In this document: positions 12,435-35,636 of the stretch, in pieces
Layout of the letters: the number at the start of each line of letters is the position of its first letter
How positions within the stretch are numbered: position 1 is the first letter of the stretch
Made by a program: the position numbers and the translations under genes
Notes under the pieces: model-generated
The model's input: the letters and a program-made list of their open reading frames with translations, nothing else
Database searches by the model: none
What the model was told of the DNA's origin: nothing
From: a virus
Direction: 5' to 3' (one strand)
IMG/VR virus record: IMGVR_UViG_3300025769_010106
Span: 1-64,000 of that record
Length of the DNA stretch: 64,000 nucleotides

Positions 12435-12655
12435 CAGTACGCAAACCCCATCAATGGCTTGCCTGGTTAGGCACGGCGGGCTTGTTGATTGCAGCAACAC
12501 TTGCTGCGTTCAATTTCTATCCCTTTTATATTTTTGCATTTATAATAGGAAATAGTTTATGGGCCATTGCAGGTTGGCTGTGGAAAGAGCAATCTTTGGT
12601 TGTTCTCAATGTAGTAATTACGCTAATATATGTGATAGGATTGTTTTTTAAGTAA
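12431..12655 (+). CDS. Small membrane protein
   Basis: Three hydrophobic segments. Confidence 0.65.
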   Translation: MTVRKPHQWLAWLGTAGLLIAATLAAFNFYPFYIFAFIIGNSLWAIAGWLWKEQSLVVLNVVITLIYVIGLFFK

Positions 12656-17311: not shown

Positions 17312-17947
17312 ATGTCCTTTGATTACAACATTCTTCCTAATATTAGAATACTGCTAAATCCAAATCTGGACTGTATATGGATTAATATTCCAAAGAATGG
17401 AAGTAGTTTTGTACAGAAAGTTTTACAGGACAATGGATGGCGTGTGCCACATCCGAACAGTCATGATGGGTTGCTTAGAAGTAACATACGCAAATTCTTT
17501 ATATTACGAAATCCGTTAGAAAGATTTATCAGTGGGTTTGCTGAATGTTTTATTGAAGAACCTTCCGTATTATCATTGCTTGATAATCCCACATTTTTAC
17601 GGATACTAGCACGTAATCCAGTCTATGACGGGCACACTACACAACAACATCTTTTTATTCCAGATTTAAGGAATAGTGAACACATATTTCTAGGATCAAG
17701 CCAACCTGCTCAACGGTTCTATTATAATCTTCAGGAATGGGTTAGAGCAATGGGCGGTCAAACAGACTGTGGAACATGGAAAGATCCAGCAAATCCTAAA
17801 GACAATGACGATAATAAACTTGCTATTAACCACAAGTTAAGAGAAATCATTGGTAGCAATAAAGATCTTAAACTCGCTATTGAAAATTTTTACAGTCAGG
17901 ATTATGATCTTCTAAATAAAGTCAAAAGAGTAAAATATGATGGATAG
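17312..17947 (+). CDS. Sulfotransferase family 2-like protein
   Basis: IPKNGSS 5'-PSB and LRNPLERFISG 3'-PB motifs. Confidence 0.7.
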   Translation: MSFDYNILPNIRILLNPNLDCIWINIPKNGSSFVQKVLQDNGWRVPHPNSHDGLLRSNIRKFFILRNPLERFISGFAECFIEEPSVLSLLDNPTFLRILARNPVYDGHTTQQHLFIPDLRNSEHIFLGSSQPAQRFYYNLQEWVRAMGGQTDCGTWKDPANPKDNDDNKLAINHKLREIIGSNKDLKLAIENFYSQDYDLLNKVKRVKYDG

Positions 17948-19580: not shown

Positions 19581-19734
19581 AAAACAGTACACAGAGTGGG
19601 CATATTCTCAAATGAAGAAGTATGGTATTCCTATGCCCGAAACATATTCTGCAGATGAATTAGAATATCTCAATCCTGGTATTCCCAGAGATTTTATTGA
19701 CAATCATGTAAAGAACAGAGACAACAATGACTGA
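19573..19734 (+). CDS. Small hypothetical protein (53 aa, not in ORF track)
   Basis: GTG...TGA frame fills the gap and overlaps both neighbours. Confidence 0.55.
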   Translation: MNRKQYTEWAYSQMKKYGIPMPETYSADELEYLNPGIPRDFIDNHVKNRDNND

Positions 19735-20182
19735 AACAAGAGAGAGTCACGACGAGTTCATTCTACGTAGGATGCGTGAAGAAGGTCTAAAGGATCGTGT
19801 ACGCAAAGCCTCACGTATGGTATGGGTTACGTTTGAGAAGGAAGGTATGCATCGCTATCCAGCGGCTGCTGATGATCCTAAACTAGCAACAGGCGATGAA
19901 TATGATGTAAGTTTCTTACAATATCCTCATCGTCATATCTTCAAGTTCCGTGTTTGGATTGAAGTATTCCACGATGATCGTGATATTGAGTTTATCCAGT
20001 TCAAGCGTTGGATGAATAAACTTTACGAGGGCGAACTTGATGTAGACTTTAAGTCATGTGAGATGATTTCCGATGACCTTTATCTAACCATTCAGGATCG
20101 CTATCCAGGCCGTGATGTTTGGATTGAAGTATCCGAAGACGGCGAAAATGGCGCACTAACACAATACTCAAAGAACGTATGA
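19727..20182 (+). CDS. dpdL: QueD-paralogous T-fold protein, DpdL-like (predicted CDG decarboxylase)
   Basis: LQYPHRHIF (LxxxHRHxF), DRDIEF, SCEM, VSEDGENGA; canonical QueD is encoded separately. Confidence 0.65.
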   Translation: MTETRESHDEFILRRMREEGLKDRVRKASRMVWVTFEKEGMHRYPAAADDPKLATGDEYDVSFLQYPHRHIFKFRVWIEVFHDDRDIEFIQFKRWMNKLYEGELDVDFKSCEMISDDLYLTIQDRYPGRDVWIEVSEDGENGALTQYSKNV

Positions 20183-20748
20183 TGAAAATAAGAAATCCTC
20201 AGCCAAAAGTTTTAGACGGATCTACATCAAAGTTTGTTGGACTCTCAGGTAGAGACCGGGGTTTAGCTGTTCAGCAGTCCTACGAAGATGCCGGAATAAC
20301 GACCAACTGGGCTGAGGGTTTAGACTTGCCTCAGTTTGGCGAAGAAATTAAGACATTTACACCTAGTAACGATATAACCATTGGCACATACAAAAGTCGC
20401 GATTTACTCAACACAGATGGTAAAGTTTGTCTTAATAAACTAGGGTGTGCTCATCAGTGGCATGAATTTGATAAGTATAACGTAAAACGAAAAACCCATT
20501 ATGTAGATTTACGTTTAATACATGATATTATCGAAAACGATTTGAAGGCATTAACAGATGATTTCAGAACCAATCCCGGGTACGGTAAATGGACCTGTGC
20601 CAAATCTAAATATTTTATATTAGAATGGACTAGACCTGAAAGCAAAGCCACTGGTGTTAAATTAAGAATACGTGCATCAAAAGTAAAAAACTTAATAACA
20701 TTAGCAGGCCAACCAACCTTTAACAAATTATTTAAGGAAGTAGTATAA
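20179..20748 (+). CDS. Hypothetical protein, possible PD-(D/E)xK nuclease
   Basis: GLDLP...EEIKT. Confidence 0.35.
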   Translation: MMKIRNPQPKVLDGSTSKFVGLSGRDRGLAVQQSYEDAGITTNWAEGLDLPQFGEEIKTFTPSNDITIGTYKSRDLLNTDGKVCLNKLGCAHQWHEFDKYNVKRKTHYVDLRLIHDIIENDLKALTDDFRTNPGYGKWTCAKSKYFILEWTRPESKATGVKLRIRASKVKNLITLAGQPTFNKLFKEVV

Positions 20749-20957
20749 TGAAAAACGACGTGCAAAAGATTTTTGACGATCTAGACGATTACAAGCGTTT
20801 CTGCACAGTATTTGGTCATCCTTATAACGAGGCTGACCTATATAACAACAAGAGTCCAGCATACAACGAGTACGCCGCCTTTAAGGGAGGCAAACGTATT
20901 AGTAACAACTGGATTAGGGATGCTAAAGTTTTTGGACGTAACATCTTTGGTAATTGA
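20748..20957 (+). CDS. Hypothetical protein
   Basis: Coupled ORF with AAGGA RBS. Confidence 0.65.
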   Translation: MKNDVQKIFDDLDDYKRFCTVFGHPYNEADLYNNKSPAYNEYAAFKGGKRISNNWIRDAKVFGRNIFGN

Positions 20958-21259
20958 TGCGTGGGTTTCCATATATAGCTGAACCTTACGTAGAACGTTG
21001 GAGTAACCGCCCTCCGCATTTGAACCATGAGGGCGGTGCTCTTAACGCAGATTATACTACCGTGGATGCGCTGTGTGCTATAGCAAATCATCTAGGAAAA
21101 CATGGACTAGAATACAACAGAGATTGGTATTGGGAAGGACGAGGCTGGAACTTCACAAACAATGCTGGTATACCAACTGTAAGGTTGAGTTTTGCCAAAC
21201 AAGAGTATACACTGTTATTACCACTAGTGGAGAACGCACATGACTATATTTCTCGTTGA
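20957..21259 (+). CDS. Hypothetical protein
   Basis: TGATG coupling. Confidence 0.6.
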   Translation: MRGFPYIAEPYVERWSNRPPHLNHEGGALNADYTTVDALCAIANHLGKHGLEYNRDWYWEGRGWNFTNNAGIPTVRLSFAKQEYTLLLPLVENAHDYISR

Positions 21260-22286
21260 TTTAGAAGCAGTTGAGACACGTTACACCAGTGAATGGAAAA
21301 CGCATCTACCCAAACAATTACGTGCCGCAACTAATGAAGATGTTGTTGTTATTAGCGGAGGCGATGTACCTCAGGCTACTACTCCAGGTGCGTTCCTAAA
21401 CTTTGGAGGAACAAATGTTTATAAGAGTAATCAACTTGAACAGATTGCTGAGATGTTTTGTCGAGGGCAAGTACACAACGGCGACTATTTCCTTTACACA
21501 GATGCTTGGAACCCTACTGTTATCCAACTTCGTTATATGGCTGAACTACTGGGGGTTGACATTCGTATTGGCGGTCTATGGCATGCTGGCAGTTATGATC
21601 CTGCTGATTTCCTCGGGCGTCTTATAGGCGATAAGCCTTGGGTCAGACATGCCGAACAGAGCATGTATGAATGCTTTGATAACAACTTCTATGCATCACA
21701 GTTTCATATTGATATGTTTGCTGAAAGTCTAAAGATAGATCCAGCAAAAACAAAACGTGTTGGCTGGCCTATGGAGTATGAAGTAGATCAAATGCTGTCA
21801 TACAAGCATATGCAAAAGACCAATACTATTCTTTTCCCACATCGTATTGCACCCGAAAAGCAGCCTGAGATATTCCGTGACCTTGCAGAAAGTATGCCAG
21901 AGTATGAATGGATTATGTGTATGGAGCAGGGCTATACTAAAAATGATTACCATAATGCACTAGGTACATCCAAGTTAGTGTTTAGTGCTAATCTACAGGA
22001 AACACTAGGTATCAGTTGGTATGAAGGTTTGCTAGTTGATACCATTCCAATGATTCCCGATCGTCTAAGTTACAGTGAAATGGCTATCGATGAATTTAAG
22101 TATCCTAGTGAATGGACAGAAAGTTGGGATAAATATCAGGAACACAAATCTAGTGTTATTGAAACAATCCACGATTACATGATTAATTACGAAAAATATC
22201 GTAATGCTATGATTACTCAAACTAATAAGTTATCTAATGACTTCTTTAGTGGAAAACAACTTTATAATACAATAAAGAATCGATGA
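21240..22286 (+). CDS. GT-B fold glycosyltransferase
   Basis: HRIAPEKQP and SANLQETLGISWYEG (ExxG...E) motifs. Confidence 0.75.
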   Translation: MTIFLVDLEAVETRYTSEWKTHLPKQLRAATNEDVVVISGGDVPQATTPGAFLNFGGTNVYKSNQLEQIAEMFCRGQVHNGDYFLYTDAWNPTVIQLRYMAELLGVDIRIGGLWHAGSYDPADFLGRLIGDKPWVRHAEQSMYECFDNNFYASQFHIDMFAESLKIDPAKTKRVGWPMEYEVDQMLSYKHMQKTNTILFPHRIAPEKQPEIFRDLAESMPEYEWIMCMEQGYTKNDYHNALGTSKLVFSANLQETLGISWYEGLLVDTIPMIPDRLSYSEMAIDEFKYPSEWTESWDKYQEHKSSVIETIHDYMINYEKYRNAMITQTNKLSNDFFSGKQLYNTIKNR

Positions 22287-23110
22287 ATATACTTCTTATA
22301 GGCGGTGCTGGATTTATTGGTAAGCATCTCGAACGTGAACTAGAACAAGATAACAATGTAGTTGTTATTGATAAGAAGTTTGGTACTAATGTAAACAACC
22401 ATAACGATCTTAATCTCATTAGTCCAGATTATGATTGTGTGGTATTTCTTGCTGCAGAACCTAATCTTGCAGCAGTAAAGCGTAGTCCTGTAGAAGCTAC
22501 TCATACTATGACAACAGGACTTATTAACTGCCTAACAAAGTTTACTAACAGTCACTTTATCTACTTTAGTAGTAGTATGGTGTACGGTAATTGGGATAGC
22601 AATCTAACACACAAATATGAATACGACAGTCCTGCTCCTATTGACTTATATGGCAGACTAAAACTAGTTGGTGAAGGACTAGTTAAAGAGCTACACGATA
22701 ACTGGACTATTGTACGTCCTACCGCAGTCTACGGAGAGGGCGACGATCCTAATCGTGTGCTACCTACATTTATTCGTACTGCTAAAGAAGGTGGAGTAAT
22801 TGAAGTAAAAGGACATGATAACTGTTTAGACTTTACAAATGTAAGTGACGTTGTTCAAGCCGTACGTTTGATGATTAAACGGGAAAGCCGCAATCAAATC
22901 TATAACGTTAGTTACAGTCAAAGTCACGCACTAGATATTATTGCAGAATATATCTGCACACAGGTTGGCACAGGCAGTTACACTATTATTCAACGGGACT
23001 ACGACTATCCTAGACGTGGCGCTCTTAGCATACAAAAGGCTAGAGTTGATCTAGGATACGAGCCTAAAATTAGTGTTGAAAAAGGTATCAAGGCGTTACT
23101 ATGCAAGTAG
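22283..23110 (+). CDS. NAD-dependent epimerase/dehydratase
   Basis: GGAGFIG, SSSMVYG, YGRLK, DFTNVSD. Confidence 0.9.
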   Translation: MNILLIGGAGFIGKHLERELEQDNNVVVIDKKFGTNVNNHNDLNLISPDYDCVVFLAAEPNLAAVKRSPVEATHTMTTGLINCLTKFTNSHFIYFSSSMVYGNWDSNLTHKYEYDSPAPIDLYGRLKLVGEGLVKELHDNWTIVRPTAVYGEGDDPNRVLPTFIRTAKEGGVIEVKGHDNCLDFTNVSDVVQAVRLMIKRESRNQIYNVSYSQSHALDIIAEYICTQVGTGSYTIIQRDYDYPRRGALSIQKARVDLGYEPKISVEKGIKALLCK

Positions 23111-24318
23111 GATTTATTGGATTAGGAAAGCTAGGTCTGCCTTGTGCAGAAGCAATGTCTGTCAAACACTCAGTTACAGGGTTTGATATTGAAGACCGTG
23201 CTAGTGATAATATAAAAGTAGTCACAGATGTAAAAGATGCAGTACAAAACAAAGATCTAGTTTTTGTTGCTATTCAAACACCACATCATCCACAGTATGA
23301 TGGTAGCATGCCTTGTATGGACTATGAGCCGCAGGACTTTAACTATGATCAAGTAAAGCAGTGCTTAAAGGAAGTCAACGAGTATGCAAATGAACATACT
23401 CTTATAGTTCTTATTAGCACAGTACTTCCCGGTACTGTTCGCAGAGAACTTGCACCTTTAATTACACAAGCACGTTTTATCTATAACCCATATCTAATTG
23501 CTATGGGAAGTGTAGCATGGGATATGGTTAATCCAGAAATGGTTATTATCGGCACAGAGGATGGTAGTGAAACAGGTGATGCAAGTCTGCTTATTAACTT
23601 CTATAAAGAACTTATGCAGAACAATCCTCGCTATAGTGTAGGAACATGGGAAGAAGCAGAAAGTATTAAGATATTCTATAACACGTTTATTAGTGCAAAA
23701 CTCAGCCTTGTTAACATGATCCAAGACGTTGCAATGAAACTGGGTAACATGAATGTTGATGTAGTTACAGATGCTCTTGCTAACAGCACCCAACGTATTA
23801 TGGGCCCAAAGTATATGACAGCGGGAATGGGAGATGGTGGTCCTTGTCATCCACGTGATAATATTGCATTACGCTATATGGCTAAGGAATTAAATTTAGA
23901 ATACGATCTGTTCCATGCTATTATGAACAGTAGAGAAGTACAAGCACGTAATCTTGCAAACTTCCTATGTGATCTTGCCAAGGAACATGAACTACCTGTA
24001 CTCATACACGGCTATGCGTACAAGCCAGATGTCCCCTATACAGACGGTAGCTATAGTAGTTTGGTTGCACATTACTGTAGCGAGCGTGGATTTCATCCTA
24101 TGATTGTTGATCCTTTAACACATCCAGATCCTGGTCCTTATAGTGCAGTTGTACTTCTTGCTCACAATCCGAGTGTTACTTATAACTACATTAACAATCA
24201 ACAATCTAACGACTTATACTGCAAACTTAATGAGGACAGCGTTATTGTTGATCCTTGGCGCAGTTTTTCCGACACTAGTTATAAAGTGATTCATTATGGC
24301 AACACAAGAATGGCATAG
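23101..24318 (+). CDS. ugd: UDP-glucose/GDP-mannose dehydrogenase
   Basis: GLGKLG, STVLPGT, YNP, GGPCHPRD, GYAYKP. Confidence 0.9.
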   Translation: MQVGFIGLGKLGLPCAEAMSVKHSVTGFDIEDRASDNIKVVTDVKDAVQNKDLVFVAIQTPHHPQYDGSMPCMDYEPQDFNYDQVKQCLKEVNEYANEHTLIVLISTVLPGTVRRELAPLITQARFIYNPYLIAMGSVAWDMVNPEMVIIGTEDGSETGDASLLINFYKELMQNNPRYSVGTWEEAESIKIFYNTFISAKLSLVNMIQDVAMKLGNMNVDVVTDALANSTQRIMGPKYMTAGMGDGGPCHPRDNIALRYMAKELNLEYDLFHAIMNSREVQARNLANFLCDLAKEHELPVLIHGYAYKPDVPYTDGSYSSLVAHYCSERGFHPMIVDPLTHPDPGPYSAVVLLAHNPSVTYNYINNQQSNDLYCKLNEDSVIVDPWRSFSDTSYKVIHYGNTRMA

Positions 24319-24820
24319 AGGGCACGTCGAGCCCTTTTGGAACGACGAATATTGTTCTTTGTCATATGGTCTTGAGTCTTTTAATAGCAGGAAAGACATA
24401 GAACGTTGGCGTAGAGAAGGGTATGTTCATCCACAAAGTCATTTTACTGGGTTTATGTGTGACATGCGTAATCAACAACCAAGTTGGAATAATGTCATAA
24501 TACATTGGGCAGAAACAGAGTTTGCGCTTAAAGACATTGGTACAAGTTATTACAAAATGGGAACAGGCGTAATATTACCAAACCATAGAGATACCTTTAA
24601 ACGATATAGAGAACTTTTTAACTGTACATTAGAACAATGTGAGCGTATAATAATATTCTTGCAAGATTGGGAAAGCGGTCACTATTTCGAGATAGAAAAA
24701 AATCCAGTGGTGGGTTGGAAAGCTGGAGATTATTATTGGTGGCGTGGTGACGTAGAACACATGGCTGCTAATATAGGCACAACTAAGAGATATACTCTAC
24801 AAATTACAGGACACAAATAA
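24296..24820 (+). CDS. 2OG-Fe(II) oxygenase-like protein
   Basis: HRD...H..AN.G...RYTLQ. Confidence 0.6.
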
Positions 24821-26049
24821 TGAAGCGTATTTTACTATTGGGAAGCGGCGAGTTAGGTAAAGAGTTTACTATAAGTGCAAAACGTTTAGGTTGTTATGTT
24901 ATAGCATGTGATAGCTATATAGGTGCGCCCGCAATGCAGGTAGCTGATGAGTTTGAAGTTTTTGACATGCTAAATGATGATGATTTAAACAAGACTATTG
25001 ATTTTTATAAACCAGACTTGATTGTACCTGAAGTTGAAGCAATTCGTACAGAAGTGTTACTGGAAAAGGAAGCACAGGGTTATACTGTTGTTCCTACAGC
25101 AAGAGCTACTAACCTAACAATGAATCGAGATCGCATCAGGGATCGCGCAGTTGAACTTGGTTTGCGTACAGCAAAGTTTGAATATGCAAATAATTTAGAG
25201 GAACTTCAATTAGCCGTAGATAGAATAGGAATGCCTTGTGTAGTTAAGCCTGTAATGAGTTCTAGTGGTAAAGGTCAGAGCGTTGTTAAATTTCAGTCAG
25301 ATACAGAACATTGGCAAAAACATTATGGACCTGCATGGGAAAGCAAAGAAGAACTAGTTGAAAATGCTTGGAACTATGCAGTTGAAGGTATGCGTGGTGA
25401 TAGACAGCGTGTAATTGTAGAAGAGTTTATTGATTTTGATCTAGAGATCACACTACTAACTGTAAAGCAACATGAGGGCCCTACACTATTTTGTCCACCA
25501 ATTGGTCACTATCAAGAACGTGGAGATTATCAGTACAGTTGGCAACCTGCACTAGAAGAAACTTTTACAGGACACATTATCGAGACCCACGCACAGGAGA
25601 TGGCAAAAATCATTACAGATGATTTGGGTGGTGCTGGTATATTTGGTGTAGAGTTTTTTGTTAAGACCAAAGGCAATAGTCCTGAGGTTATCTTCAGCGA
25701 ACTGAGTCCACGCCCACATGATACTGGAATGGTAACCATGTTTACGCAAAACCTAAGTGAGTTTGACTTACATGCAAGAGCTATACTGGGATTACCAATT
25801 GGTGAAATTAAACTGGTACGTCCGGGCGCAAGTCACGTTGTCCTAGCACATGAAACTACACATGAGTTTATTATAAGCGGTATTAACGATGCACTTAAAA
25901 TACCAGACGTTGATGTAAGAGTGTTTGGTAAGCCTACAACGAGGCCATATCGTAGAATGGCAGTTGTACTTGCACCTAGTTTGAAAATTGCAAAAGAAGC
26001 AGCTGGTAAAATTAGTGTTGTAGATATTGCAACTGATGCAGGTTTATGA
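24820..26049 (+). CDS. purT: Formate-dependent phosphoribosylglycinamide formyltransferase
   Basis: [48 protein letters not shown]. Confidence 0.93.
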
Positions 26050-26651
26050 TGAATTACGATATTTTAGATAAGTTTGAAGGCGTTCTAAGGGAATATACTG
26101 GCGCGCCGCACGTTGTACTAACAGATTGTTGCACACATGCTATTGAATTATGTTTGAGGTTTCAGAAGTATACCGGGCCAGTCATACTTCCAAGTCATAC
26201 TTACATTAGTATCCCAATGACAATGCACAAGTTGGGATTAGAGTTATATTGGGACAAGGATTATAACTGGGAGTATGAATATCGTATTGCTCCTACAAAT
26301 ATCTGGGATAGTGCTAGAGCATTCGACGAGAATATGTATATAAGCGGTCGTATGCAGTGCCTAAGTTTCGGTTGGGACAAGCGGTTGGCTATTGGTCATG
26401 GTGGTGCTATTCTACTTGATAGCAGAAGTGATTATAATATCTTACGAAGAATGGCCTATGATGGCAGAACGCTAGATACTTCTCCTTGGGAGAATCAAAC
26501 TTATTGGTGGCTGGGATTCCACTATAACATGCGACTAGAAGATGCAGCAAAGGGTATAGATATGATGCTACATCCAGAAAACTTACCCAACAAACAAAGC
26601 CAACTTAAAACCTATCCAGATTGTAGTAAAATAAAAGTTGACTTATCTTAA
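26046..26651 (+). CDS. Short DegT/DnrJ-like PLP aminotransferase
   Basis: CTHAIEL, WDSA, LSFGWDK..GHGGAIL; lacks the usual C-terminal domain. Confidence 0.7.
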
Positions 26652-26691
26652 TTTATATCTTACAATTTAAAACTACAAAGGAACACAGTAC

Positions 26692-27372
26692 ATGAGAAAG
26701 ACTTCCGAAATAATCCGAGAGCGCATGCAGGCAACTAACAAGCGTTTTCATAGCAATGACAACATCAGTGATTTTATTCAGGATGGCGAACTAGAACTAC
26801 TACAGCAAGAAGTGGAAGAACGATTCCAAGAAGTTTTGGACGCTCTAGTCATTGATACAGTGAACGATCACAATACACAAGAAACAGCAAAGCGTGTTGC
26901 TAAGATGTTCGTAAATGAAACATTTGGCGGACGTTATCATCCAATGCCACGGGTTACGGCATTTCCTAATATGGGTTACAAGAGCATGTATACCAGCGGC
27001 CCTATTAGTATCCGTAGTACCTGTGCTCACCACTTCCAAAACATCGTGGGCAACTGCTGGGTAGGAATTATCCCAGAAGATGAAGTAATTGGACTTAGTA
27101 AGTTCAATCGCATCATTCACCATATCGCTGAACGCCCACAGATTCAGGAAGAAATGACTACACAGATTGCAGAAGTACTAAAAGAATATGCAAAGACAGA
27201 GCATATCGCTGTGGTAGTTAAAGCCGAGCACCATTGCATGACGGCCCGTGGTGTTCGGGAACATGAGAGCGATATGACTACCGCAGTTATGTGTGGTGGT
27301 TTTCTCACAGACCCAAGTGTTAAGCAGGAGTTTTACAACATCTGTTTAAGCATGAAGGGTCATGGCAACTAA
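26692..27372 (+). CDS. folE: GTP cyclohydrolase I
   Basis: TAKRVAKM, STCAHH, GLSKFNR, QIQE, HHCMTARG. Confidence 0.95.
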   Translation: MRKTSEIIRERMQATNKRFHSNDNISDFIQDGELELLQQEVEERFQEVLDALVIDTVNDHNTQETAKRVAKMFVNETFGGRYHPMPRVTAFPNMGYKSMYTSGPISIRSTCAHHFQNIVGNCWVGIIPEDEVIGLSKFNRIIHHIAERPQIQEEMTTQIAEVLKEYAKTEHIAVVVKAEHHCMTARGVREHESDMTTAVMCGGFLTDPSVKQEFYNICLSMKGHGN

Positions 27373-27396: not shown

Positions 27397-28020
27397 ATGA
27401 TGAAGTTACTAGAAGGTGTAGATCGCAAGTTGGTTACCAATCTTGTTATCATGCACACAATCGTAATTGCACTTTCAAATTACTTGGTGCAGTTCAAGTT
27501 TAACCTGTTCCCAGGTGCTAACTTGCCATTCTTTGGTGAGTTTCCACTTGCAGTTGCAGCATTTACATTTCCAATTGTAGTTGTTGCCACTGACTTGACC
27601 GTCCGTATGGTGGGCAAGGAAGCAGGCAGGGCAGTTGTTGCCCTAGCAGTCATCCCAGCAATCATTGTAAGTATTTTGGTTGTTTGGGGCGGCGGTGCAC
27701 CAGTTGAGAAGGCACTACGTATTGGTGCAGCAAGTGGTGTTGCATATGGCGTTGGTACAATGCTAGACGTTTATGTATTCCAGTATATTCGTGAGAAGTT
27801 CACAGAGATGTGGTGGGCTGCTCCAGCATTTTCAACCATTGTCGCAAACATCCTAGACACTTATGCGTTCTTCTATACAGCATTTTATCCAGCACCTTGG
27901 GTACATGCTGTTGCGTTCAACCAAACAATCACAAAGATTATTGTAGGGTTGATTGTGTTCCTACCAGCATATGGTTTCCTATTAAACTATTTGCGGAAGA
28001 AGCTAGGACGTAGTCTATAA
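27397..28020 (+). CDS. yhhQ: VUT-family queuosine-precursor transporter
   Basis: SNYLVQ, AAFTFP..ATDLTVR, LDVYVF, DTYAFF; six or more TM segments. Confidence 0.85.
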   Translation: MMKLLEGVDRKLVTNLVIMHTIVIALSNYLVQFKFNLFPGANLPFFGEFPLAVAAFTFPIVVVATDLTVRMVGKEAGRAVVALAVIPAIIVSILVVWGGGAPVEKALRIGAASGVAYGVGTMLDVYVFQYIREKFTEMWWAAPAFSTIVANILDTYAFFYTAFYPAPWVHAVAFNQTITKIIVGLIVFLPAYGFLLNYLRKKLGRSL

Positions 28021-28030
28021 TACGTGCTGT

Positions 28031-28058
28031 GGGGGGCCTTAGTGCCCCCCCTTTTTTT
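28031..28058 (+). terminator. Rho-independent terminator
   Basis: GGGGGGC-cttagt-GCCCCCC stem followed by a T7 tract after yhhQ. Confidence 0.85.
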
Positions 28059-28438: not shown

Positions 28439-31400
28439 ATGATGACTCATTTTAAAACTATTGCAGGAGCATTGCTAGCCACCACAATGCTTACAGCGTG
28501 TCAGGGTGGCAGTTCAAATCCTGTTAAAGCTATCAATTCCGTTAAGGCTGAACTTAATCCTGTTGTAAACAGTAACTTTGGTGCTATTGCAGGCGAAATT
28601 TCTGCACTGGAAGCAATCGTAAATGAGGCAACCGGATCAGCAACTATTAGTGCTATTTTAAATCCCACAGAAGCAGATAAACGCACTGCTGAAAACATTG
28701 TATCTCGAATCGATGATGTTATTAACGGCTGGGAGGCACATAAAGCAGAATATAATCCAAAACTACTTGCTGTTAAAATGAGTTCTGAGGACTTTCGTCG
28801 TGCAGAAGCAGTTGTTAAAATTTTAAAAGAGGATCTACGTCCAGTTATTGTTGACGTTACCAATGGTAAGGGCTACGACACTGAAGCATTTGCTTTTCTT
28901 GAGAGTAAAGAAAAGATTGATGGTGTTATTGATAGTAAAAAGATAAAAATCTTTGAAAATGTAGTACCTACTCTAATTAGTTCAAACGTCAGTAGCGTAA
29001 CGGTAGACAAAACTAGTGCTGCTACCAGTCCTGATCGTCTTAAGGAAACTATTGTAGTTGATGGCGAGCAGACTGTAACTGGCGGTTCTAGCATTTCTGA
29101 TCTAACACGTACCGCTACTTGGGTAAAGACAACTACAAAGAAGATGGAGTATGATCGTAGTTGGACGGTTACACTACAAAATGTAACCACATATGTTTAC
29201 AGCGATGGTAGCACAAAAACTGAACGTAGTGAAATCCGTGAAGTACCTTATACACAGACACTTTCAGCTGCTGACATTGTTACTACACAGGACATGTCAC
29301 AGAACATTGCCTATACAGTTGAAGAACAAAACGATCCAACTACAACTGTCACTCGTGGCGAAACGGTTGTAGTAAATGAGTATGTGGATCGTGTTGAAAC
29401 TGCTACGCAGGAAGATGGTAGTAAGGTACATAACACCATTCGTACTACTACAACCACAAGCACTACGCCTGTCACTACTACACTAACATATCCTAAGATT
29501 AGTGTGTACACATACACAGATGGACATTCATTTACTCATGATGCTACAGATGAAGTGGTTAGTAGTACAGAAGATGAAGTTGTTGTCAATACAAGTGAAG
29601 CAACTGTAGAAAGTACTACAGAGCATGTTGTAGCGAGTGAAACCGTTACAAACGAAGTTATTACAGACGTAACAGAAGCTGATCCAGTATTTGATACAAC
29701 CTATGAAGACAAGACAACTAGTGAAACTGTAGACGGTAAATTAATTACTACTGTAACACGTTATTACACGACCACTGCTACTATTGTTACTACAACTACC
29801 ACAAACACAACTCCTGTGACAAAACAGATTTGGACTGATGGTACTGAGAAACTAATTCGCGGTGAAACTGTAGTTGAAACTAGTACTGAAAATACTGTAG
29901 TGACAGATAGTTGGACTAAGGTTATGAGCACCACAACAGAGGATGCTCCTGCTGATAGTACACCTATTGCAGACGATCATCCTGACATGGGCACACGTAC
30001 CGCAGGGTTCAACAGCAATCCTGTAAGCTATCGTACTTCAGAGTTCAATGGAACTTCTGGTCAGAACTACAAGCAGGCAATTAACGCAGACGTTGCATAC
30101 TCCCGTGGTTGGACTGGTAAAGGCAGTCTAATTACTATTGCTGATACTGGTTACGATAAGGATCACTCAGACCTTGCTGGTGCAGTTAAACATGAGTTCA
30201 ACACTCTAACAAATGATGCGACGTTTATGGATGACAACGTTGGTCACGGTAGTCATGTGTTGGGTATTGCGGCTGGACGTAAGAACGGTAGCGGTACACA
30301 CGGTGTTGCATTTGATGCAGACGTTGCAGTAGTTAAAGTAACTGATAGCACTGGCTACAGTTTCCAACGTGCACGAACAGGCGCTGCCTGGGCACGTGAT
30401 TTGGGTAGTGTTGCGTTTAACGTTAGTGCTAACTCACGTGAAGACTCAGCATTTAGAGCAAGTCTTACTCCAACAGGTACTACTGGTGTCCAGTATAGTA
30501 ATCACTGGTACTACGGTGAGAATGGATACAATGGTGCTGTAGACGAAGCCAAGTTGTGGGCAACTGCATTAGGTAGCGAACAGATCCTTGTGAACAGTGC
30601 TGGTAACTTTGGCAAGGATTATGTATCGGGTACTGGTCAGATGGCCCATGCTACAGATTCTAATGGCAACCTTATTATGGGCGGGCGTATGCTAATCGTT
30701 GGCTCATATGATCTTGCTAACAATAAGATTGCTAGTTACAGTAACAAGGCTGGTACAGTTTGTGCTACCTGGGACTTTACAAACAATCTCTGTAAAGATG
30801 CTGCCAAGGCAAGTGACTTCTATATTCTTGCACCAGGCGATAACATTCAGAGTGCATATAAAGACGGTACTAGTGTTAACATGAGTGGTACTAGTATGGC
30901 AGCACCTGTTGTTACTGGTGCACTTGCTATTGTACATCAGATGTGGCCTCACATGAAGGGTGAGAACCTGGTTAAACTGTTGCTGGTAACGGCAGACAAG
31001 GACTTGCCTGGCTATGCTGAACACACACATGGACAGGGTATGCTGGACTTGGACAAGGCTACACAGCCTGTAGGTGCAACTGGTATTCCTACCAGTGGAC
31101 GTACTGATGGCGAGATTGCCAATCTTGAAACATTAAGTGGTGGTGCTGGCATTGGTAATATTAGTAGCGATGCTTTTGCGGCACTAAGTAATGTTACGGT
31201 GCTTGATAGCTTTGAGCGTGATTTTACAATCAATCTAAACAACACTCAGGCTATTGATACTCGTCCTGGATCGTCAACAGAAGCACTAAGTTTTGGTGCA
31301 GACTATGACGGTTACTGGAACCTTGCTAATGCAGGCGAAGCCACTAGTGACTTGTTTGGTATTAGGACATCATTTAAGTTTGATCCAGATGCTAAAACAA

Positions 31401-32005
31401 ACGCTGACTGGGGCATGCGTACAGAGTATGATGTACATAGTAGCGAAGAAACTACTATTACTGCCGCACTTGGTATGATTAAGGAGACAGGTAAGTTCCT
31501 TAACAACGTTCAGGAAGGCTTTATGGGAGTTGGTGAGTCACACACCACAAACTATGCAGGCTTGCGTCTCAATCACAAGTTTGATGAGAACTGGTTTGGG
31601 TTTGGTAACTTCCAGTTGGGCATGACAGACGTTGAGTCATCCAAGGAGTTTAGTCTAGTAACTGGGTACAGCACCCTAGTAAGTAACAGTTGGGGTGTCG
31701 GTGCAGGTTACAAGTTTACTAACGGGTGGACTGTTGGCGCTAACTTTAGTCAGCCAATGACAGTTACAAGCGGTAAGATGAACTACAAGGTTCCAGTAGG
31801 ACGTACACTTGACGGACAGGTATTATTTAATGAAGGAAGTGCTGATGCAAGTACGAAAAATATTGAATATGATACCGGTTTGTTTGTAAAATATAATGTA
31901 AACAATGTTGCACTTGCTGGCTATGCAGAGCATCGTAGCAATGTTGCAGGCGTCGACGGTAACAACGAAGTTAACCTAGGCGTTAAATTGAACTTGAAGT
32001 TCTAA
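28439..32005 (+). CDS. Lipoprotein S8 subtilisin-like protease with Thr-rich stalk and C-terminal beta-barrel-like domain
   Basis: LTAC lipobox; IADTG, HGSHV and GTSMAAP catalytic triad; NSAGN; alternating beta strands ending LNLKF. Confidence 0.88.
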   Translation: MMTHFKTIAGALLATTMLTACQGGSSNPVKAINSVKAELNPVVNSNFGAIAGEISALEAIVNEATGSATISAILNPTEADKRTAENIVSRIDDVINGWEAHKAEYNPKLLAVKMSSEDFRRAEAVVKILKEDLRPVIVDVTNGKGYDTEAFAFLESKEKIDGVIDSKKIKIFENVVPTLISSNVSSVTVDKTSAATSPDRLKETIVVDGEQTVTGGSSISDLTRTATWVKTTTKKMEYDRSWTVTLQNVTTYVYSDGSTKTERSEIREVPYTQTLSAADIVTTQDMSQNIAYTVEEQNDPTTTVTRGETVVVNEYVDRVETATQEDGSKVHNTIRTTTTTSTTPVTTTLTYPKISVYTYTDGHSFTHDATDEVVSSTEDEVVVNTSEATVESTTEHVVASETVTNEVITDVTEADPVFDTTYEDKTTSETVDGKLITTVTRYYTTTATIVTTTTTNTTPVTKQIWTDGTEKLIRGETVVETSTENTVVTDSWTKVMSTTTEDAPADSTPIADDHPDMGTRTAGFNSNPVSYRTSEFNGTSGQNYKQAINADVAYSRGWTGKGSLITIADTGYDKDHSDLAGAVKHEFNTLTNDATFMDDNVGHGSHVLGIAAGRKNGSGTHGVAFDADVAVVKVTDSTGYSFQRARTGAAWARDLGSVAFNVSANSREDSAFRASLTPTGTTGVQYSNHWYYGENGYNGAVDEAKLWATALGSEQILVNSAGNFGKDYVSGTGQMAHATDSNGNLIMGGRMLIVGSYDLANNKIASYSNKAGTVCATWDFTNNLCKDAAKASDFYILAPGDNIQSAYKDGTSVNMSGTSMAAPVVTGALAIVHQMWPHMKGENLVKLLLVTADKDLPGYAEHTHGQGMLDLDKATQPVGATGIPTSGRTDGEIANLETLSGGAGIGNISSDAFAALSNVTVLDSFERDFTINLNNTQAIDTRPGSSTEALSFGADYDGYWNLANAGEATSDLFGIRTSFKFDPDAKTNADWGMRTEYDVHSSEETTITAALGMIKETGKFLNNVQEGFMGVGESHTTNYAGLRLNHKFDENWFGFGNFQLGMTDVESSKEFSLVTGYSTLVSNSWGVGAGYKFTNGWTVGANFSQPMTVTSGKMNYKVPVGRTLDGQVLFNEGSADASTKNIEYDTGLFVKYNVNNVALAGYAEHRSNVAGVDGNNEVNLGVKLNLKF

Positions 32006-32476: not shown

Positions 32477-32910
32477 ATATTTTCAAAAATAGAAAAAGAA
32501 TTATACTAGATCGCATTGGGCAACAGCCCTATCTAGAAAGGTATTACCTGTTCCTAAAAGATCGTAAATGGTTTCCATTTAACGTCTTCTTACACAAGTT
32601 TTTACAAAGTGATCCAGACGAACTACACGATCATCCTTGGCCCTACTTCACGCTAATCTTACGTGGAGGTTATTGGGAGACTACTCCTAAAGGACGCTTT
32701 TGGCGTGGCCCAGGGCATATGCGTGTTAACGGTCCTAAGAGTCTACATCGTGTAGAACTAGAACCAGGAGTATGTGCTTGGTCACTATTTTTTCCTGGTC
32801 CTAAACTACGTGAGTGGGGTTTCATTGTAAACGGTAAATGGATGCACAATGAAAAGTATTTTGAATGGCGAAAGCAGAAGGTAAGAGATGAACAAACTAT
32901 ATCTGTCTAA
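32473..32910 (+). CDS. Cupin-like protein
   Basis: LHDHPW..LILRGGYWE...HRV. Confidence 0.7.
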   Translation: MNIFKNRKRIILDRIGQQPYLERYYLFLKDRKWFPFNVFLHKFLQSDPDELHDHPWPYFTLILRGGYWETTPKGRFWRGPGHMRVNGPKSLHRVELEPGVCAWSLFFPGPKLREWGFIVNGKWMHNEKYFEWRKQKVRDEQTISV

Positions 32911-33400
32911 TCGAGATATTGAAAAAGGCGTACATGATATTGTAAACTCAATGTATGCTGACAACTGGCGGCCCGATTACATTGTAGGTATTACACGAGG
33001 TGGATTAATTCCTGCTGTAATGATGAGTCATCTAACTGGTATTAAGATGCACACACTGGACGTTCGTTTGCGTGATGGCGATGAACAACAATCTAACTAT
33101 TGGATGGCAGAGGATGCATTTGGGATCTTTCAAATGGGCGGCACATATGAAGATAAGAAAATTCTTATCTTAGACGATATTAACGATACTGGTGCTACAT
33201 TCCAATGGATCAAAGAAGATTGGCCGGCAGGCTGTCATCCAAATGAACGCCGATGGGATAAAGTTTGGCATAACAATGTTCGGTTTGCTACTATTGTGAA
33301 TAATCTATCCAGTAAGTTTGAGATTGATCACGCTAGTATTGAAATCAACAAAGCAGAGGAAGACACATGGGTTGTTTTCCCATATGAGGAGTGGTGGTGA
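32888..33400 (+). CDS. Type I phosphoribosyltransferase (xanthine/guanine PRT-like)
   Basis: GITRGGLIPA, LILDDINDTGAT PRPP loop, WVVFPYE. Confidence 0.88.
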   Translation: MNKLYLSNRDIEKGVHDIVNSMYADNWRPDYIVGITRGGLIPAVMMSHLTGIKMHTLDVRLRDGDEQQSNYWMAEDAFGIFQMGGTYEDKKILILDDINDTGATFQWIKEDWPAGCHPNERRWDKVWHNNVRFATIVNNLSSKFEIDHASIEINKAEEDTWVVFPYEEWW

Positions 33401-34081: not shown

Positions 34082-34555
34082 ATGGCAAAGTATATTAGTA
34101 CAAAAACATATAGGCACCTAGGTCCCGTTGCATACAGACAGTGGCGAGCAGATTCACATTGTAATCTTATCCACGGATATGCACTGAGTTTTCATTTCGA
34201 GTTTGAAACTGATGACCTTGATGCTCGAAACTGGGTAGTAGACTTTGGTGGATTACGTCCACTAAAGGACAGCTTAGAAGATTGGTTTGATCACACTCTG
34301 CTAGTAGCACAGGATGATCCAGACCGCGACACGCTACTAGAACTAGGCAAGAAAGGCCTAGCAAAGATTACAGAAGTTGAAAAGACTGGATGCGAGGGTC
34401 TATCAGACTTTTTGTATGAGTATGTAAACACAATATTTTTACCTAGTTGGGAACCTGGCACCAGGGTATGGTGCTGTAAGGTTGAGGTAAGAGAAACTGA
34501 CTCGAATATGGCTATGCGAGTTGGTCACAGAGAAGATGGAGAATTTGATGTTTAA
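34082..34555 (+). CDS. queD: 6-carboxy-5,6,7,8-tetrahydropterin synthase
   Basis: CNLIHGY, VVDFG, FDH, GCE, VRET. Confidence 0.9.
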   Translation: MAKYISTKTYRHLGPVAYRQWRADSHCNLIHGYALSFHFEFETDDLDARNWVVDFGGLRPLKDSLEDWFDHTLLVAQDDPDRDTLLELGKKGLAKITEVEKTGCEGLSDFLYEYVNTIFLPSWEPGTRVWCCKVEVRETDSNMAMRVGHREDGEFDV

Positions 34556-34772: not shown

Positions 34773-35636
34773 ATGAAAGTAAGATACACTGAAGCGTTTT
34801 ATTCAGTTCAAGGAGAAGGTCGCTGGACAGGTGTGCCCAGTGTTTTCCTTCGCATGTATGGTTGTAACTTTACATGTCCTAAGTTTGGCATTGCAAGAGA
34901 CAGTAACGAAACAGCAGAGCCCCATATCAATAAAATTGTAGATGAGATTGACAAATACAATAGCATTGATGAGCTACCACTTGTAACAGTTGGATGCGAT
35001 AGTTATGCAGCCTGGCATCCCGCATTTAAACGATTCCAGCATGATGTTGATATTGATCAACTAGTAGACGATCTGCTTGCACTTACACCAACAGGTTCTT
35101 GGACATTGGACAATGGACAGGATATCCATTTGGTTATTACAGGCGGTGAACCCTTGCTTGGTTGGCAACGAGCATATATACAATTATTCAAACACGAACG
35201 CATGAAGGACCTAAAGAATGTTACATTCGAAACTAATACTACACAGAATTTGTCTGACGATCTCAGATCGTACCTCACAGATAATCAACATGTACACATT
35301 ACATTCTCTTGTTCCCCTAAACTATCGGTTAGTGGACATACTTGGGTTGATGCTATCAAGCCTAATGTTGCTGTTGAGTACGCTAGTCTTCGTAACAGCC
35401 ACTTGTATCTTAAGTTCGTTGTTTGCGATGATGTTGACGTGGCAGAAGTTGATCGAGCTGTTGCAGAATATAGATCTGCAGGACTTGAAGCGCCGGTTTA
35501 CCTCATGCCAGTCGGCGGTACGACGGACAGTTACTTCAAAAATGGCCGCCAAGTCGCAGAGCTCGCCTTACAAAAAGGCTACAGATATAGTCCACGGCTC
35601 CACGTTGACATCTTTGGCAACGCCTGGGGAACCTAA
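34773..35636 (+). CDS. queE: 7-carboxy-7-deazaguanine synthase (radical SAM)
   Basis: FYSVQGEG..G.PSVFLR..GCNFTC..CDS, TGGEP, ETN, SPKL, SPRLH. Confidence 0.92.
   Translation: MKVRYTEAFYSVQGEGRWTGVPSVFLRMYGCNFTCPKFGIARDSNETAEPHINKIVDEIDKYNSIDELPLVTVGCDSYAAWHPAFKRFQHDVDIDQLVDDLLALTPTGSWTLDNGQDIHLVITGGEPLLGWQRAYIQLFKHERMKDLKNVTFETNTTQNLSDDLRSYLTDNQHVHITFSCSPKLSVSGHTWVDAIKPNVAVEYASLRNSHLYLKFVVCDDVDVAEVDRAVAEYRSAGLEAPVYLMPVGGTTDSYFKNGRQVAELALQKGYRYSPRLHVDIFGNAWGT

Follow-up and report, generated by a model that had tools for sequence, protein, structure and literature searches.

The stretch analysed here (the window) covers the first 64,000 nucleotides of an IMG/VR contig that is 108 kb long (CheckV completeness 31%) and comes from an uncultured large phage of the T4-like kind. 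Judged by its genes, the window carries a 7-deazaguanine DNA-modification module of the QueC-less, DpdL type, with FolE, QueD-like, QueE-like, DpdL and DpdA-like proteins, and within this module lies a cassette of six genes that begins with a glycosyltransferase (GT). We consider the chances about even that this GT puts a sugar on the deazaguanine, as free base or in DNA, and that the variable genes next to it diversify this sugar. That the virion DNA of the window phage and of many relatives carries a sugar-bearing 7-deazaguanine, which would have an amino and/or uronic sugar in the phage studied here, is a more tentative proposal and falls somewhat short of even chances. New in this work is the distribution of the tailoring genes among the GT-DpdL modules.

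The GT is closely linked to DpdL. Profiles made from the window proteins were run over all retrieved loci, and the 102 loci with the GT form the base set. DpdL is present in 91 of them, at a median gap of 241 nucleotides, and in eight of the 11 loci that have no DpdL in the fetched stretch the GT lies too near the contig end. Two stretches (L032 and L038) begin inside the cassette, and their relative L034 keeps DpdL upstream of it; DpdL is truly missing from the GT locus in one distant lineage only. The preliminary description of this DNA had named an independent distribution of the GT and dpdA/dpdL as an argument against its proposal, and with these counts the distribution is not independent. 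Among cultured phages the GT is found with 25–46% identity in Phosso, the PA5oct group, ACP17, Xanthomonas X1/BUDD and Burkholderia BCSR5, and in each of these groups DpdL, DpdA-like, folE or queE genes adjoin it. A GT with at least 25% identity is always accompanied by DpdL in cultured phages, while seven cultured DpdL groups, including phiST, have no GT; thus, the GT is an accessory of DpdL systems and not required. The linkage with DpdL is also kept in a distant uncultured GT branch with 29% identity. From gene content, the distribution of the GT fits an accessory step that would act downstream of DpdL.

The GT family is large: metagenomes contain at least 8000 relatives, clustering at 50% identity gives 1196 clusters, and no close relative was found in the GTDB species genomes. 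At its distant end, the group of Xanthomonas phage PhiXhv-12 (L023, 5669-8903; GT identity 23%) carries the GT in a trio with a GlmS-like amidotransferase and an LmbE/BshB-like deacetylase, with no deazaguanine genes nearby. Two distant loci (L024 and L025) have two GT paralogues each, one adjoining folE and the other adjoining DpdL, and a paralogue in L024 has a weak match to PF00534 (E 4e-4, below cut-off). For three distant GTs (P0252, P0267 and P0227) the related-locus search gave no usable context, the sole metagenome match being a 1.5-kb contig.

The GT of the window has no sequence match in Pfam (including Glycos_transf_1, PF00534), PHROG, NCBIfam or the PDB, and its fold was used for identification. 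The AlphaFold2 (AF2) model, made from an alignment of 61 relatives, has a pLDDT of 95.2 and shows a GT-B fold with two Rossmann-like domains. Foldseek gave TM-scores of 0.64–0.68 to GT4-type enzymes including BshA, MshA and glycogen synthase, and VIA gave Z-scores up to 25.9 (next 25.1) over residues 1-348; taking both searches together, the nearest folds are the GT4-type retaining enzymes BshA, sucrose-phosphate synthase, MshA, glycogen synthase and PglA. The E-x7-E motif consists of E254 and, eight residues further on, the invariant E262; conservation reaches at least 90% at E254 and likewise at R202 and K207. We take the motif and the Arg/Lys pair, the latter at the phosphates of the nucleoside diphosphate (NDP) sugar, to have the roles usual in this family. 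The VIA list contains UDP-glucose:tetrahydrobiopterin glucosyltransferase (BGluT, 5zer) on rank 22 with Z 21.1 as well as the T4 alpha-glucosyltransferase (1y6f) on rank 36 with Z 18.4. Since both enzymes are in the list, the fold does not reveal the acceptor. The isoelectric point of the GT is 5.1 and the DpdA-like protein is acidic too, so that this property is uninformative on DNA binding.

The deazaguanine genes around the cassette were identified with different degrees of directness. DpdL of the window reads LQYPHRHIF, and the motif LxxxHRHxF is present in 90 of 92 family members. This motif defines DpdL, where it replaces the QueD motif CxxxHGH (PMC10516641). In tblastn the window protein matches the phiST DpdL region (gp040) with 31% identity (E 8e-9), and it has no direct match to the Pfam PTPS family. 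The DNA transglycosylase candidate, a 486-aa open reading frame (ORF), is more divergent. Residues D101, S102, G103, G104 and Q106 do not vary among 36 relatives and form a DSGGFQ-type motif, presumably the site of the catalytic Asp of tRNA-guanine transglycosylase (TGT). The ORF matches ACP17 gp123 with an hhalign probability of 91%, is 34% identical to PA5oct gp168 and has an ESM Atlas score of 0.94 to a cluster with PF01702 in 17% of its members. PF01702 (TGT) gave no match for the window protein nor anywhere on the contig, and among the 36 relatives there was one weak match (E 0.062); the PDB was not matched by sequence, and the family profile finds no TGT there. Direct Pfam and PDB support is likewise absent for divergent DpdA families according to the literature (PMC10516641).

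Further downstream, the QueD-like and QueE-like genes would supply 7-carboxy-7-deazaguanine, and the QueE family was also recovered in related loci. The QueD-like protein (34082-34555) reads C-N-L-I-H-G-Y, compared with the signature CxxxHGH, and the second metal-binding His is thus a Tyr. No QueC was found on the contig, and the 108-kb contig (31% complete according to CheckV) gave no match to thymidylate-synthase-like (PF00303) or TET/JBP (PF12851) genes. A phosphoribosyltransferase gene is often found near the module: 15 of the 29 stretches fetched first contain it, as do 29 of the 80 loci with degT described below. In 71 loci a family of about 175 aa without Pfam match lies between DpdA and DpdL (for example L001:7726-8238), and this family is absent from the entire window contig.

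All features lie on the plus strand (Table 1), on which a family-B DNA polymerase gene (12655-15330) is located and genes continue from there into the region of interest. The preliminary description had reported a translationally coupled run of six genes at 21240-26651, and the ORFs were found at exactly these positions, with overlaps of 4, 10, 23, 1 and 4 nucleotides between consecutive genes. The gene identities that it gave were mostly borne out by Pfam, NCBIfam, AF2 and fold searches, and its placement of the cassette within a deazaguanine block holds, with the DpdL signature and the DSGG.Q motif of the 486-aa ORF on the 5' side, and folE, followed by yhhQ, on the 3' side. The chain of overlapping genes starts upstream of the cassette at DpdL (19727) and continues via three small ORFs into the GT; the 69-aa ORF among them is conserved, its family being present in 52 loci. 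Across 68 loci the median distance from degT to the folE gene after it is 70 nucleotides. A strong terminator-like hairpin located just past yhhQ probably marks the end of the transcription unit. Between DpdA and position 28031 the plus strand contains only two weak terminator-like sites with 3 G-C pairs each. Since this strong hairpin is the only one, the stretch from the DpdA-like gene through yhhQ looks like one transcription unit.

Table 1. Features of the modification module and its surroundings in the window
Feature	Position	Strand	Evidence
Sulfotransferase-like ORF	17312..17947	+	PF03567 Sulfotransfer_2, E 1.5e-6; weak phrog_3347 (galactose-3-O-sulfotransferase)
DpdA-like (TGT-like) DNA transglycosylase candidate, 486 aa	17937..19397	+	DSGG.Q motif, hhalign, ESM Atlas
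DpdL, 151 aa, QueD-like T-fold, proposed 7-carboxy-7-deazaguanine decarboxylase	19727..20182	+	LxxxHRHxF
Three small overlapping ORFs (189, 69 and 101 aa) bridging DpdL and GT	20179..21259	+	No Pfam match
GT4-type GT-B glycosyltransferase, 348 aa	21240..22286	+	AF2 and Foldseek/VIA folds, E-x7-E, synteny
Extended short-chain dehydrogenase/reductase (SDR), NDP-sugar epimerase or oxidoreductase, 275 aa	22283..23110	+	PF01370, E 6e-29
Nucleotide-sugar 6-dehydrogenase, UDP-glucose dehydrogenase-like (ugd)	23101..24318	+	PF00984, PF03721; phrog_9148, E 4.5e-94
Small cupin, 174 aa, AspH-type 2-oxoglutarate-Fe(II) oxygenase-like	24296..24820	+	HxD...H and Arg; PF05118 in relatives
PurT, formate-dependent glycinamide ribonucleotide (GAR) transformylase (ATP-grasp)	24820..26049	+	NF006766, 1kj8
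Short DegT-type pyridoxal phosphate (PLP) protein, 201 aa, large domain only	26046..26651	+	PF01041, E 1.4e-14
FolE, GTP cyclohydrolase I	26692..27372	+	PF01227, E 1.5e-46
YhhQ/Vut_1-type membrane protein, queuosine-precursor transporter family	27397..28020	+	PF02592, E 1.5e-21
Terminator-like G+C hairpin and T run	28031..28050	+	7 G-C pairs, then CTTTTTTT
Phosphoribosyltransferase	32888..33400	+	PF00156, E 2e-13
QueD-like	34082..34555	+	PF01242, E 2.6e-14
QueE-like	34773..35636	+	Weak Fer4_12 match

The tailoring genes differ greatly in how often they accompany the GT. In the 102 loci degT was found 75 times, the oxygenase 18 times, ugd 13 times and PurT, which is rare in cultured phages too, 8 times; an SDR gene is located between GT and degT in about 53 loci, and some SDR calls outside this interval are different, distant SDRs. 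Sorted by gene content, the commonest class has SDR and degT with the GT (40 loci), followed by degT only (19 loci), GT only (16 loci), SDR only (9 loci) and the full five-gene set (8 loci), with other mixtures in 10 loci. The short DegT, used as a query by itself, retrieved 254 viral stretches, of which the best 80 were inspected; all 80 have deazaguanine genes beside degT or reach the contig end there. The GT is present in the fetched stretch of 73 of these 80 loci, and the usual order is DpdA-DpdL-GT-(SDR)-degT-FolE. In an alternative order, DpdL-SDR-ugd-oxygenase-PurT-degT-DpdA-GT-FolE, the cassette is located between DpdL and DpdA and is thus still inside the module. The short DegT and the SDR therefore appear, from these distributions, to belong to the module as a rule, and ugd, the oxygenase and PurT would be optional layers. 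Of the sugar cassette noted in the preliminary description, the short DegT and the SDR travel with the module; the case for ugd is weaker, as ugd relatives occur in marine phages in which the searches for GT and DpdL found neither gene. That PurT and degT are gained and lost together was ruled out by the larger sample, with degT in 75 loci and PurT in 8.

The interval is a mosaic. The full cassette is spread over at least three GT clades, and it needs at least three changes on the GT tree, a quick tree in which long branches are unsure. Between the window and L034, DpdL, ugd, PurT, degT and yhhQ are 77–91% identical and DpdA, GT and FolE 40–43%; the latter three are grouped together in L034 and thus have apparently been swapped as one unit. 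Other loci contain in the same interval GFO/IDH/MocA, ADH or FkbM methyltransferase genes or a weak GDSL-like match (below the Pfam cut-off). This pattern resembles a glycan-diversity locus that is anchored in the deazaguanine module.

The products of the tailoring genes were examined one by one. The SDR contains the GxxGxxG and YxxxK motifs, and its PDB neighbours include GalE, 4-epimerases, UDP-glucuronic acid (UDP-GlcA) decarboxylase and UDP-GlcA 4-epimerases. It reads SSSMVYG where human UXS1 reads TSEVYG, with a Met in place of the Glu that we take to be catalytic in SDRs decarboxylating UDP-GlcA (S-T-S-E-V-Y-G). In ugd the N-terminal and central domains pass the Pfam cut-offs, the C-terminal domain reaches 20.5 bits (cut-off 30) and TIGR03026 scores 155 (cut-off 189.8); the active-site Cys is found in GGPCHPRD. 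The short DegT scores 54.6 bits with PF01041 (cut-off 19.8), and K112, the Schiff-base Lys aligned to the Lys of AHBA synthase, and D88, the PLP-ring Asp, are invariant in 37 sequences. Its AF2 model (pLDDT 91.5) has GDP-perosamine synthase, ArnB, DesI, WecE and PglE as top Foldseek matches, which are all NDP-sugar aminotransferases, with target-normalised TM-scores of only 0.32–0.40. The protein does not have the full two-domain build of about 360–400 aa: the C-terminal domain is gone and profile positions of about 87–182 are squeezed into about 33 residues. This short form is itself conserved, with a mean column identity of 62%.

In the small oxygenase H97, D99, H155, R165 and T167 are invariant in 32 sequences, which is the pattern of the iron triad and the 2-oxoglutarate Arg. 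PF05118 (Asp/Asn beta-hydroxylase) is matched by 7 of 32 relatives (best E 3.1e-5) and not by the window protein, and an ESM Atlas neighbour cluster has this domain in 21% of its members. The preliminary description had invoked a 2-oxoglutarate oxygenase hydroxylating the base; the protein does look like such an oxygenase, but with 18 of 102 loci hydroxylation is not a general step. PurT scores 520 bits with NF006766 (cut-off 339) and 495.4 with TIGR01142, just short of 502.15, and matches E. coli PurT (1kj8) over nearly the full length with E 4e-97. It keeps the Glu of PEIEAI, the Asp of PRPHDTG, the Lys of FGKP and the RR pair, positions that presumably belong to the substrate and GAR-phosphate site. 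Formyl tailoring by PurT, as suggested at the outset, is one of the weaker parts of that reading: the protein looks like a true GAR transformylase and, from its sequence, is most likely a genuine purine-synthesis enzyme rather than a formyl-tailoring enzyme.

In the pathway that we propose, FolE, QueD and QueE would make 7-carboxy-7-deazaguanine, DpdL would convert this compound, probably through decarboxylation, and DpdA would swap the product for guanine in DNA. The GT would move a sugar from an NDP-sugar onto the deazaguanine, either onto the free base before insertion or onto DNA after insertion, and the candidates for the acceptor are the exocyclic N2, one of the ring carbons or a group that another enzyme has put on. 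The genes between GT and folE would prepare or edit the sugar used by the GT: ugd would lead to a uronic acid, the SDR would carry out C4 epimerisation or oxidation, the short DegT-type enzyme would place an amino group on the sugar, and the small oxygenase might hydroxylate in some lineages. Formate is set free from GTP by FolE and is a substrate of PurT, which might thus re-use it and help to replenish the GTP consumed by the pathway. What the data show are the identities of the genes, the build of the operon and the shared location of the genes in many lineages; the deazaguanine as acceptor of the GT, the order of the steps, the identity of the sugar and the role of PurT are what we infer. 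Phages carry differing subsets of the cassette, suggesting that the sugar is diversified, as expected of a mark that is under pressure from host nucleases. The DNA of PA5oct, one of the GT-bearing phages, resists enzymes with G in their sites, a G-modified behaviour (PMC12191111), and phage GTs akin to small-molecule and lipopolysaccharide (LPS) GTs have been shown to act on DNA (10.1101/2023.12.21.572611).

Several points weigh against a sugar on the deazaguanine. 7-Deazaguanine has no hydroxyl or other obvious acceptor atom, and the oxygenase (18 of 102 loci) is too rare to supply one generally. The loci were retrieved with the window's own proteins and many are closely related, so that the counts exceed the number of independent events. 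Cellulophaga phage phiST makes plain 2'-deoxy-7-deazaguanine (dDG) with DpdL and DpdA3, its DNA being fully dDG, and has no GT (PMC10516641). More distant relatives of the short DegT (32–40% identity) were found in the cultured Flavobacterium phage immuto_2-6A and Synechococcus phage S-SCSM2R, there in multi-GT glycan clusters, and the base measured in immuto DNA is fdPreQ1, with no sugar reported (PMC10516641). In immuto_2-6A (L113, 2423-13239) this cluster spans about 11 kb and contains five annotated glycosyltransferases, a full-length and a short DegT, a methyltransferase and an epimerase. Relatives of ugd were found in Synechococcus phage Bellamy and Pelagibacter phage HTVC008M, and the GT and DpdL searches returned neither phage. 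Finally, the best fold matches of the GT use small-molecule acceptors and the T4 alpha-glucosyltransferase is far down the list.

The relatives of DegT and ugd in these phages would also be expected if the cassette, and perhaps the GT with it, made activated sugars for a glycan that is not DNA, such as one on a virion protein, a host envelope molecule or another product. The cassette would then lie beside the deazaguanine genes only since the stretch near the DNA polymerase is a variable region of co-transcribed accessory genes, and the high variability of gene content between DpdA and folE agrees with this. However, the adjacency of GT and DpdL is kept down to 25–29% GT identity in unrelated phage groups with differing flanks, the best 80 short DegT loci all have deazaguanine genes beside degT or reach the contig end there, the cassette is inside the module in both gene orders, and GT and DpdA have apparently been swapped jointly as one block; we thus regard a glycan elsewhere as unlikely, although it is the strongest of the other explanations. 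It might also be that the GT glycosylates a free small molecule derived from GTP, a pterin or a free 7-deazapurine, which never enters DNA, with DpdL, SDR and FolE forming a route like that to pterin glycosides beside the DNA pathway. Cyanobacterial BGluT glucosylates tetrahydrobiopterin, and a T-fold protein, a GT4 enzyme, an SDR and GTP cyclohydrolase I are the enzyme types of pterin-glycoside synthesis; the usual order DpdL-GT-SDR-degT-FolE places just these side by side, and the top fold matches of the GT, BGluT included, all use small acceptors. But BGluT is only the 22nd of these matches, pterin glycosides are not known from the hosts of PA5oct, ACP17, Phosso and X1, DpdA and QueE accompany these genes and the GT co-varies with DpdA, and DpdL does not have the catalytic Cys of QueD/PTPS (PMC10516641). 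A product that stays outside DNA is therefore quite improbable in our view.

The lowest probability is given to a third idea, that the SDR, the short DegT and PurT remodel the side chain at C7 of the deazaguanine with no need for QueC or QueF and so yield a base like fdPreQ1, which we consider highly improbable. Reduction of the carboxylate would give the aldehyde and transamination the aminomethyl group, as in preQ1, which PurT would then formylate with formate and ATP. PurT is the formate-dependent counterpart of PurN, and here it would replace the PurN-like DpdN of immuto. The missing QueC and the short DegT, in which the C-terminal domain of NDP-sugar aminotransferases is absent, are in line with this route, and fdPreQ1 is a known phage DNA base whose proposed formyltransferase DpdN is PurN-like (PMC10516641). 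Against it stand the close match of PurT to the E. coli enzyme with the GAR-phosphate positions kept, the rarity of PurT (8 of 102 loci) compared with degT (75 of 102) and the fold neighbours of the short DegT, all of them NDP-sugar aminotransferases; moreover, no role would be left for the GT and ugd.

All DNA sugar modifications that we know of are on hydroxylated or hydroxymethylated pyrimidines. If the GT indeed glycosylates the deazaguanine in DNA, a purine-type DNA base with a sugar would be found for the first time, and with it a new class of natural DNA base; our literature search found no description of a glycosylated deazaguanine in DNA. The tailoring genes would then generate a family of sugar-bearing bases that is diversified by the conflict with host nucleases, which bears on the escape of phages from restriction enzymes, CRISPR and the DNA glycosylases used in defence. 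It would also bear on the sequencing of environmental phage DNA, given the size of the GT family in metagenomes, and might provide enzymes for DNA labelling. In E. coli, dpdL and dpdA of ACP17 did not yield dDG by themselves, and a possible need for other enzymes was suggested by the authors (PMC10516641); a GT step could explain this result. What the window adds is that a plain hexose is probably not the sugar in every case, given the regular presence of the half-size aminotransferase and the SDR. With five cultured phage groups that have the GT-DpdL pair, the question is testable now.

Some further observations concern the borders of the module. The 3' end of the sulfotransferase-like ORF (17312-17947) overlaps the start of the DpdA-like gene, and L001 has a copy with 52% identity; this ORF could encode one more tailoring enzyme that would sulfate the sugar, but its membership in the module is uncertain. 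Immediately past the terminator a 1188-aa ORF (28439-32005) contains a subtilase S8 domain (residues 560-866). The 40-nucleotide leader of folE (26652-26691) contains a promoter-like TTGACT-17-TACAAT, with no Rfam match there; in a scan of the region promoter-like sites were not commoner than in shuffled sequence. Rfam detected no RNA family at 17-36 kb, and the region has no megablast match to cultured phages.

Among known enzymes the GT is closest to the GT4 small-molecule GTs BshA, MshA, sucrose-phosphate synthase and BGluT, which it matches over its full length with Z 21–26 and with which its family shares the E-x7-E motif and the Arg/Lys pair. It differs from them in sequence, with 10–15% identity and no Glycos_transf_1 match, and in the loci examined its family is found in phage and metagenome sequences only, beside deazaguanine genes (the PhiXhv-12 branch excepted). 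The cassette as a whole is reminiscent of the Arn pathway (Ugd, ArnA, ArnB), which leads to UDP-4-formamido-arabinose (UDP-Ara4FN) and has the enzyme types that the cassette genes resemble, namely a 6-dehydrogenase, an SDR, an aminotransferase of the DegT type and an enzyme that adds a formyl group. However, the window SDR has a Met for the catalytic Glu, the aminotransferase is half-size, and the formyl enzyme is an ATP-grasp PurT and not a folate-dependent transformylase; an Arn-like pathway was rejected since the SDR does not have the decarboxylase Glu and PurT is orthodox.

Sugars can be attached to 7-deazaguanine derivatives, as in mannosyl- and galactosyl-queuosine of eukaryotic tRNA and in the N2-glycosylated 7-deazapurine antibiotics dapiramicin and huimycin. 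These are RNA or free metabolites with the sugar on the cyclopentenediol hydroxyl or N2, and none of them is known from DNA.

The system most similar to the deazaguanine part of the module is the DpdL/DpdA3 system of phiST, which makes dDG (PMC10516641). Both have FolE, QueD, QueE and DpdL with LxxxHRHxF but no QueC, both have a very divergent TGT-like DpdA (in the window a candidate), and in both the modification genes are located near replication genes. In contrast to the window, the phiST module has no GT, SDR, DegT, ugd, oxygenase or PurT, and phiST DNA contains plain dDG; in addition, the DpdA-like protein has 486 aa in the window and 259 aa in phiST, and tblastn links neither to the other. 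For the sugar part, the nearest parallel is pyrimidine glycosylation in phages, with the T4 alpha- and beta-glucosyltransferases, the glycans on 5-hydroxymethylcytosine (10.1101/2023.12.21.572611) and the glycosylated 5-hydroxycytosine (PMC13326640) in phage DNA. The partner genes in the window make a purine analogue and not a hydroxylated pyrimidine, but in both cases a GT-B enzyme that has cellular small-molecule or LPS GTs as relatives is part of a base-modification cluster, and in both the sugar chemistry differs among phages.

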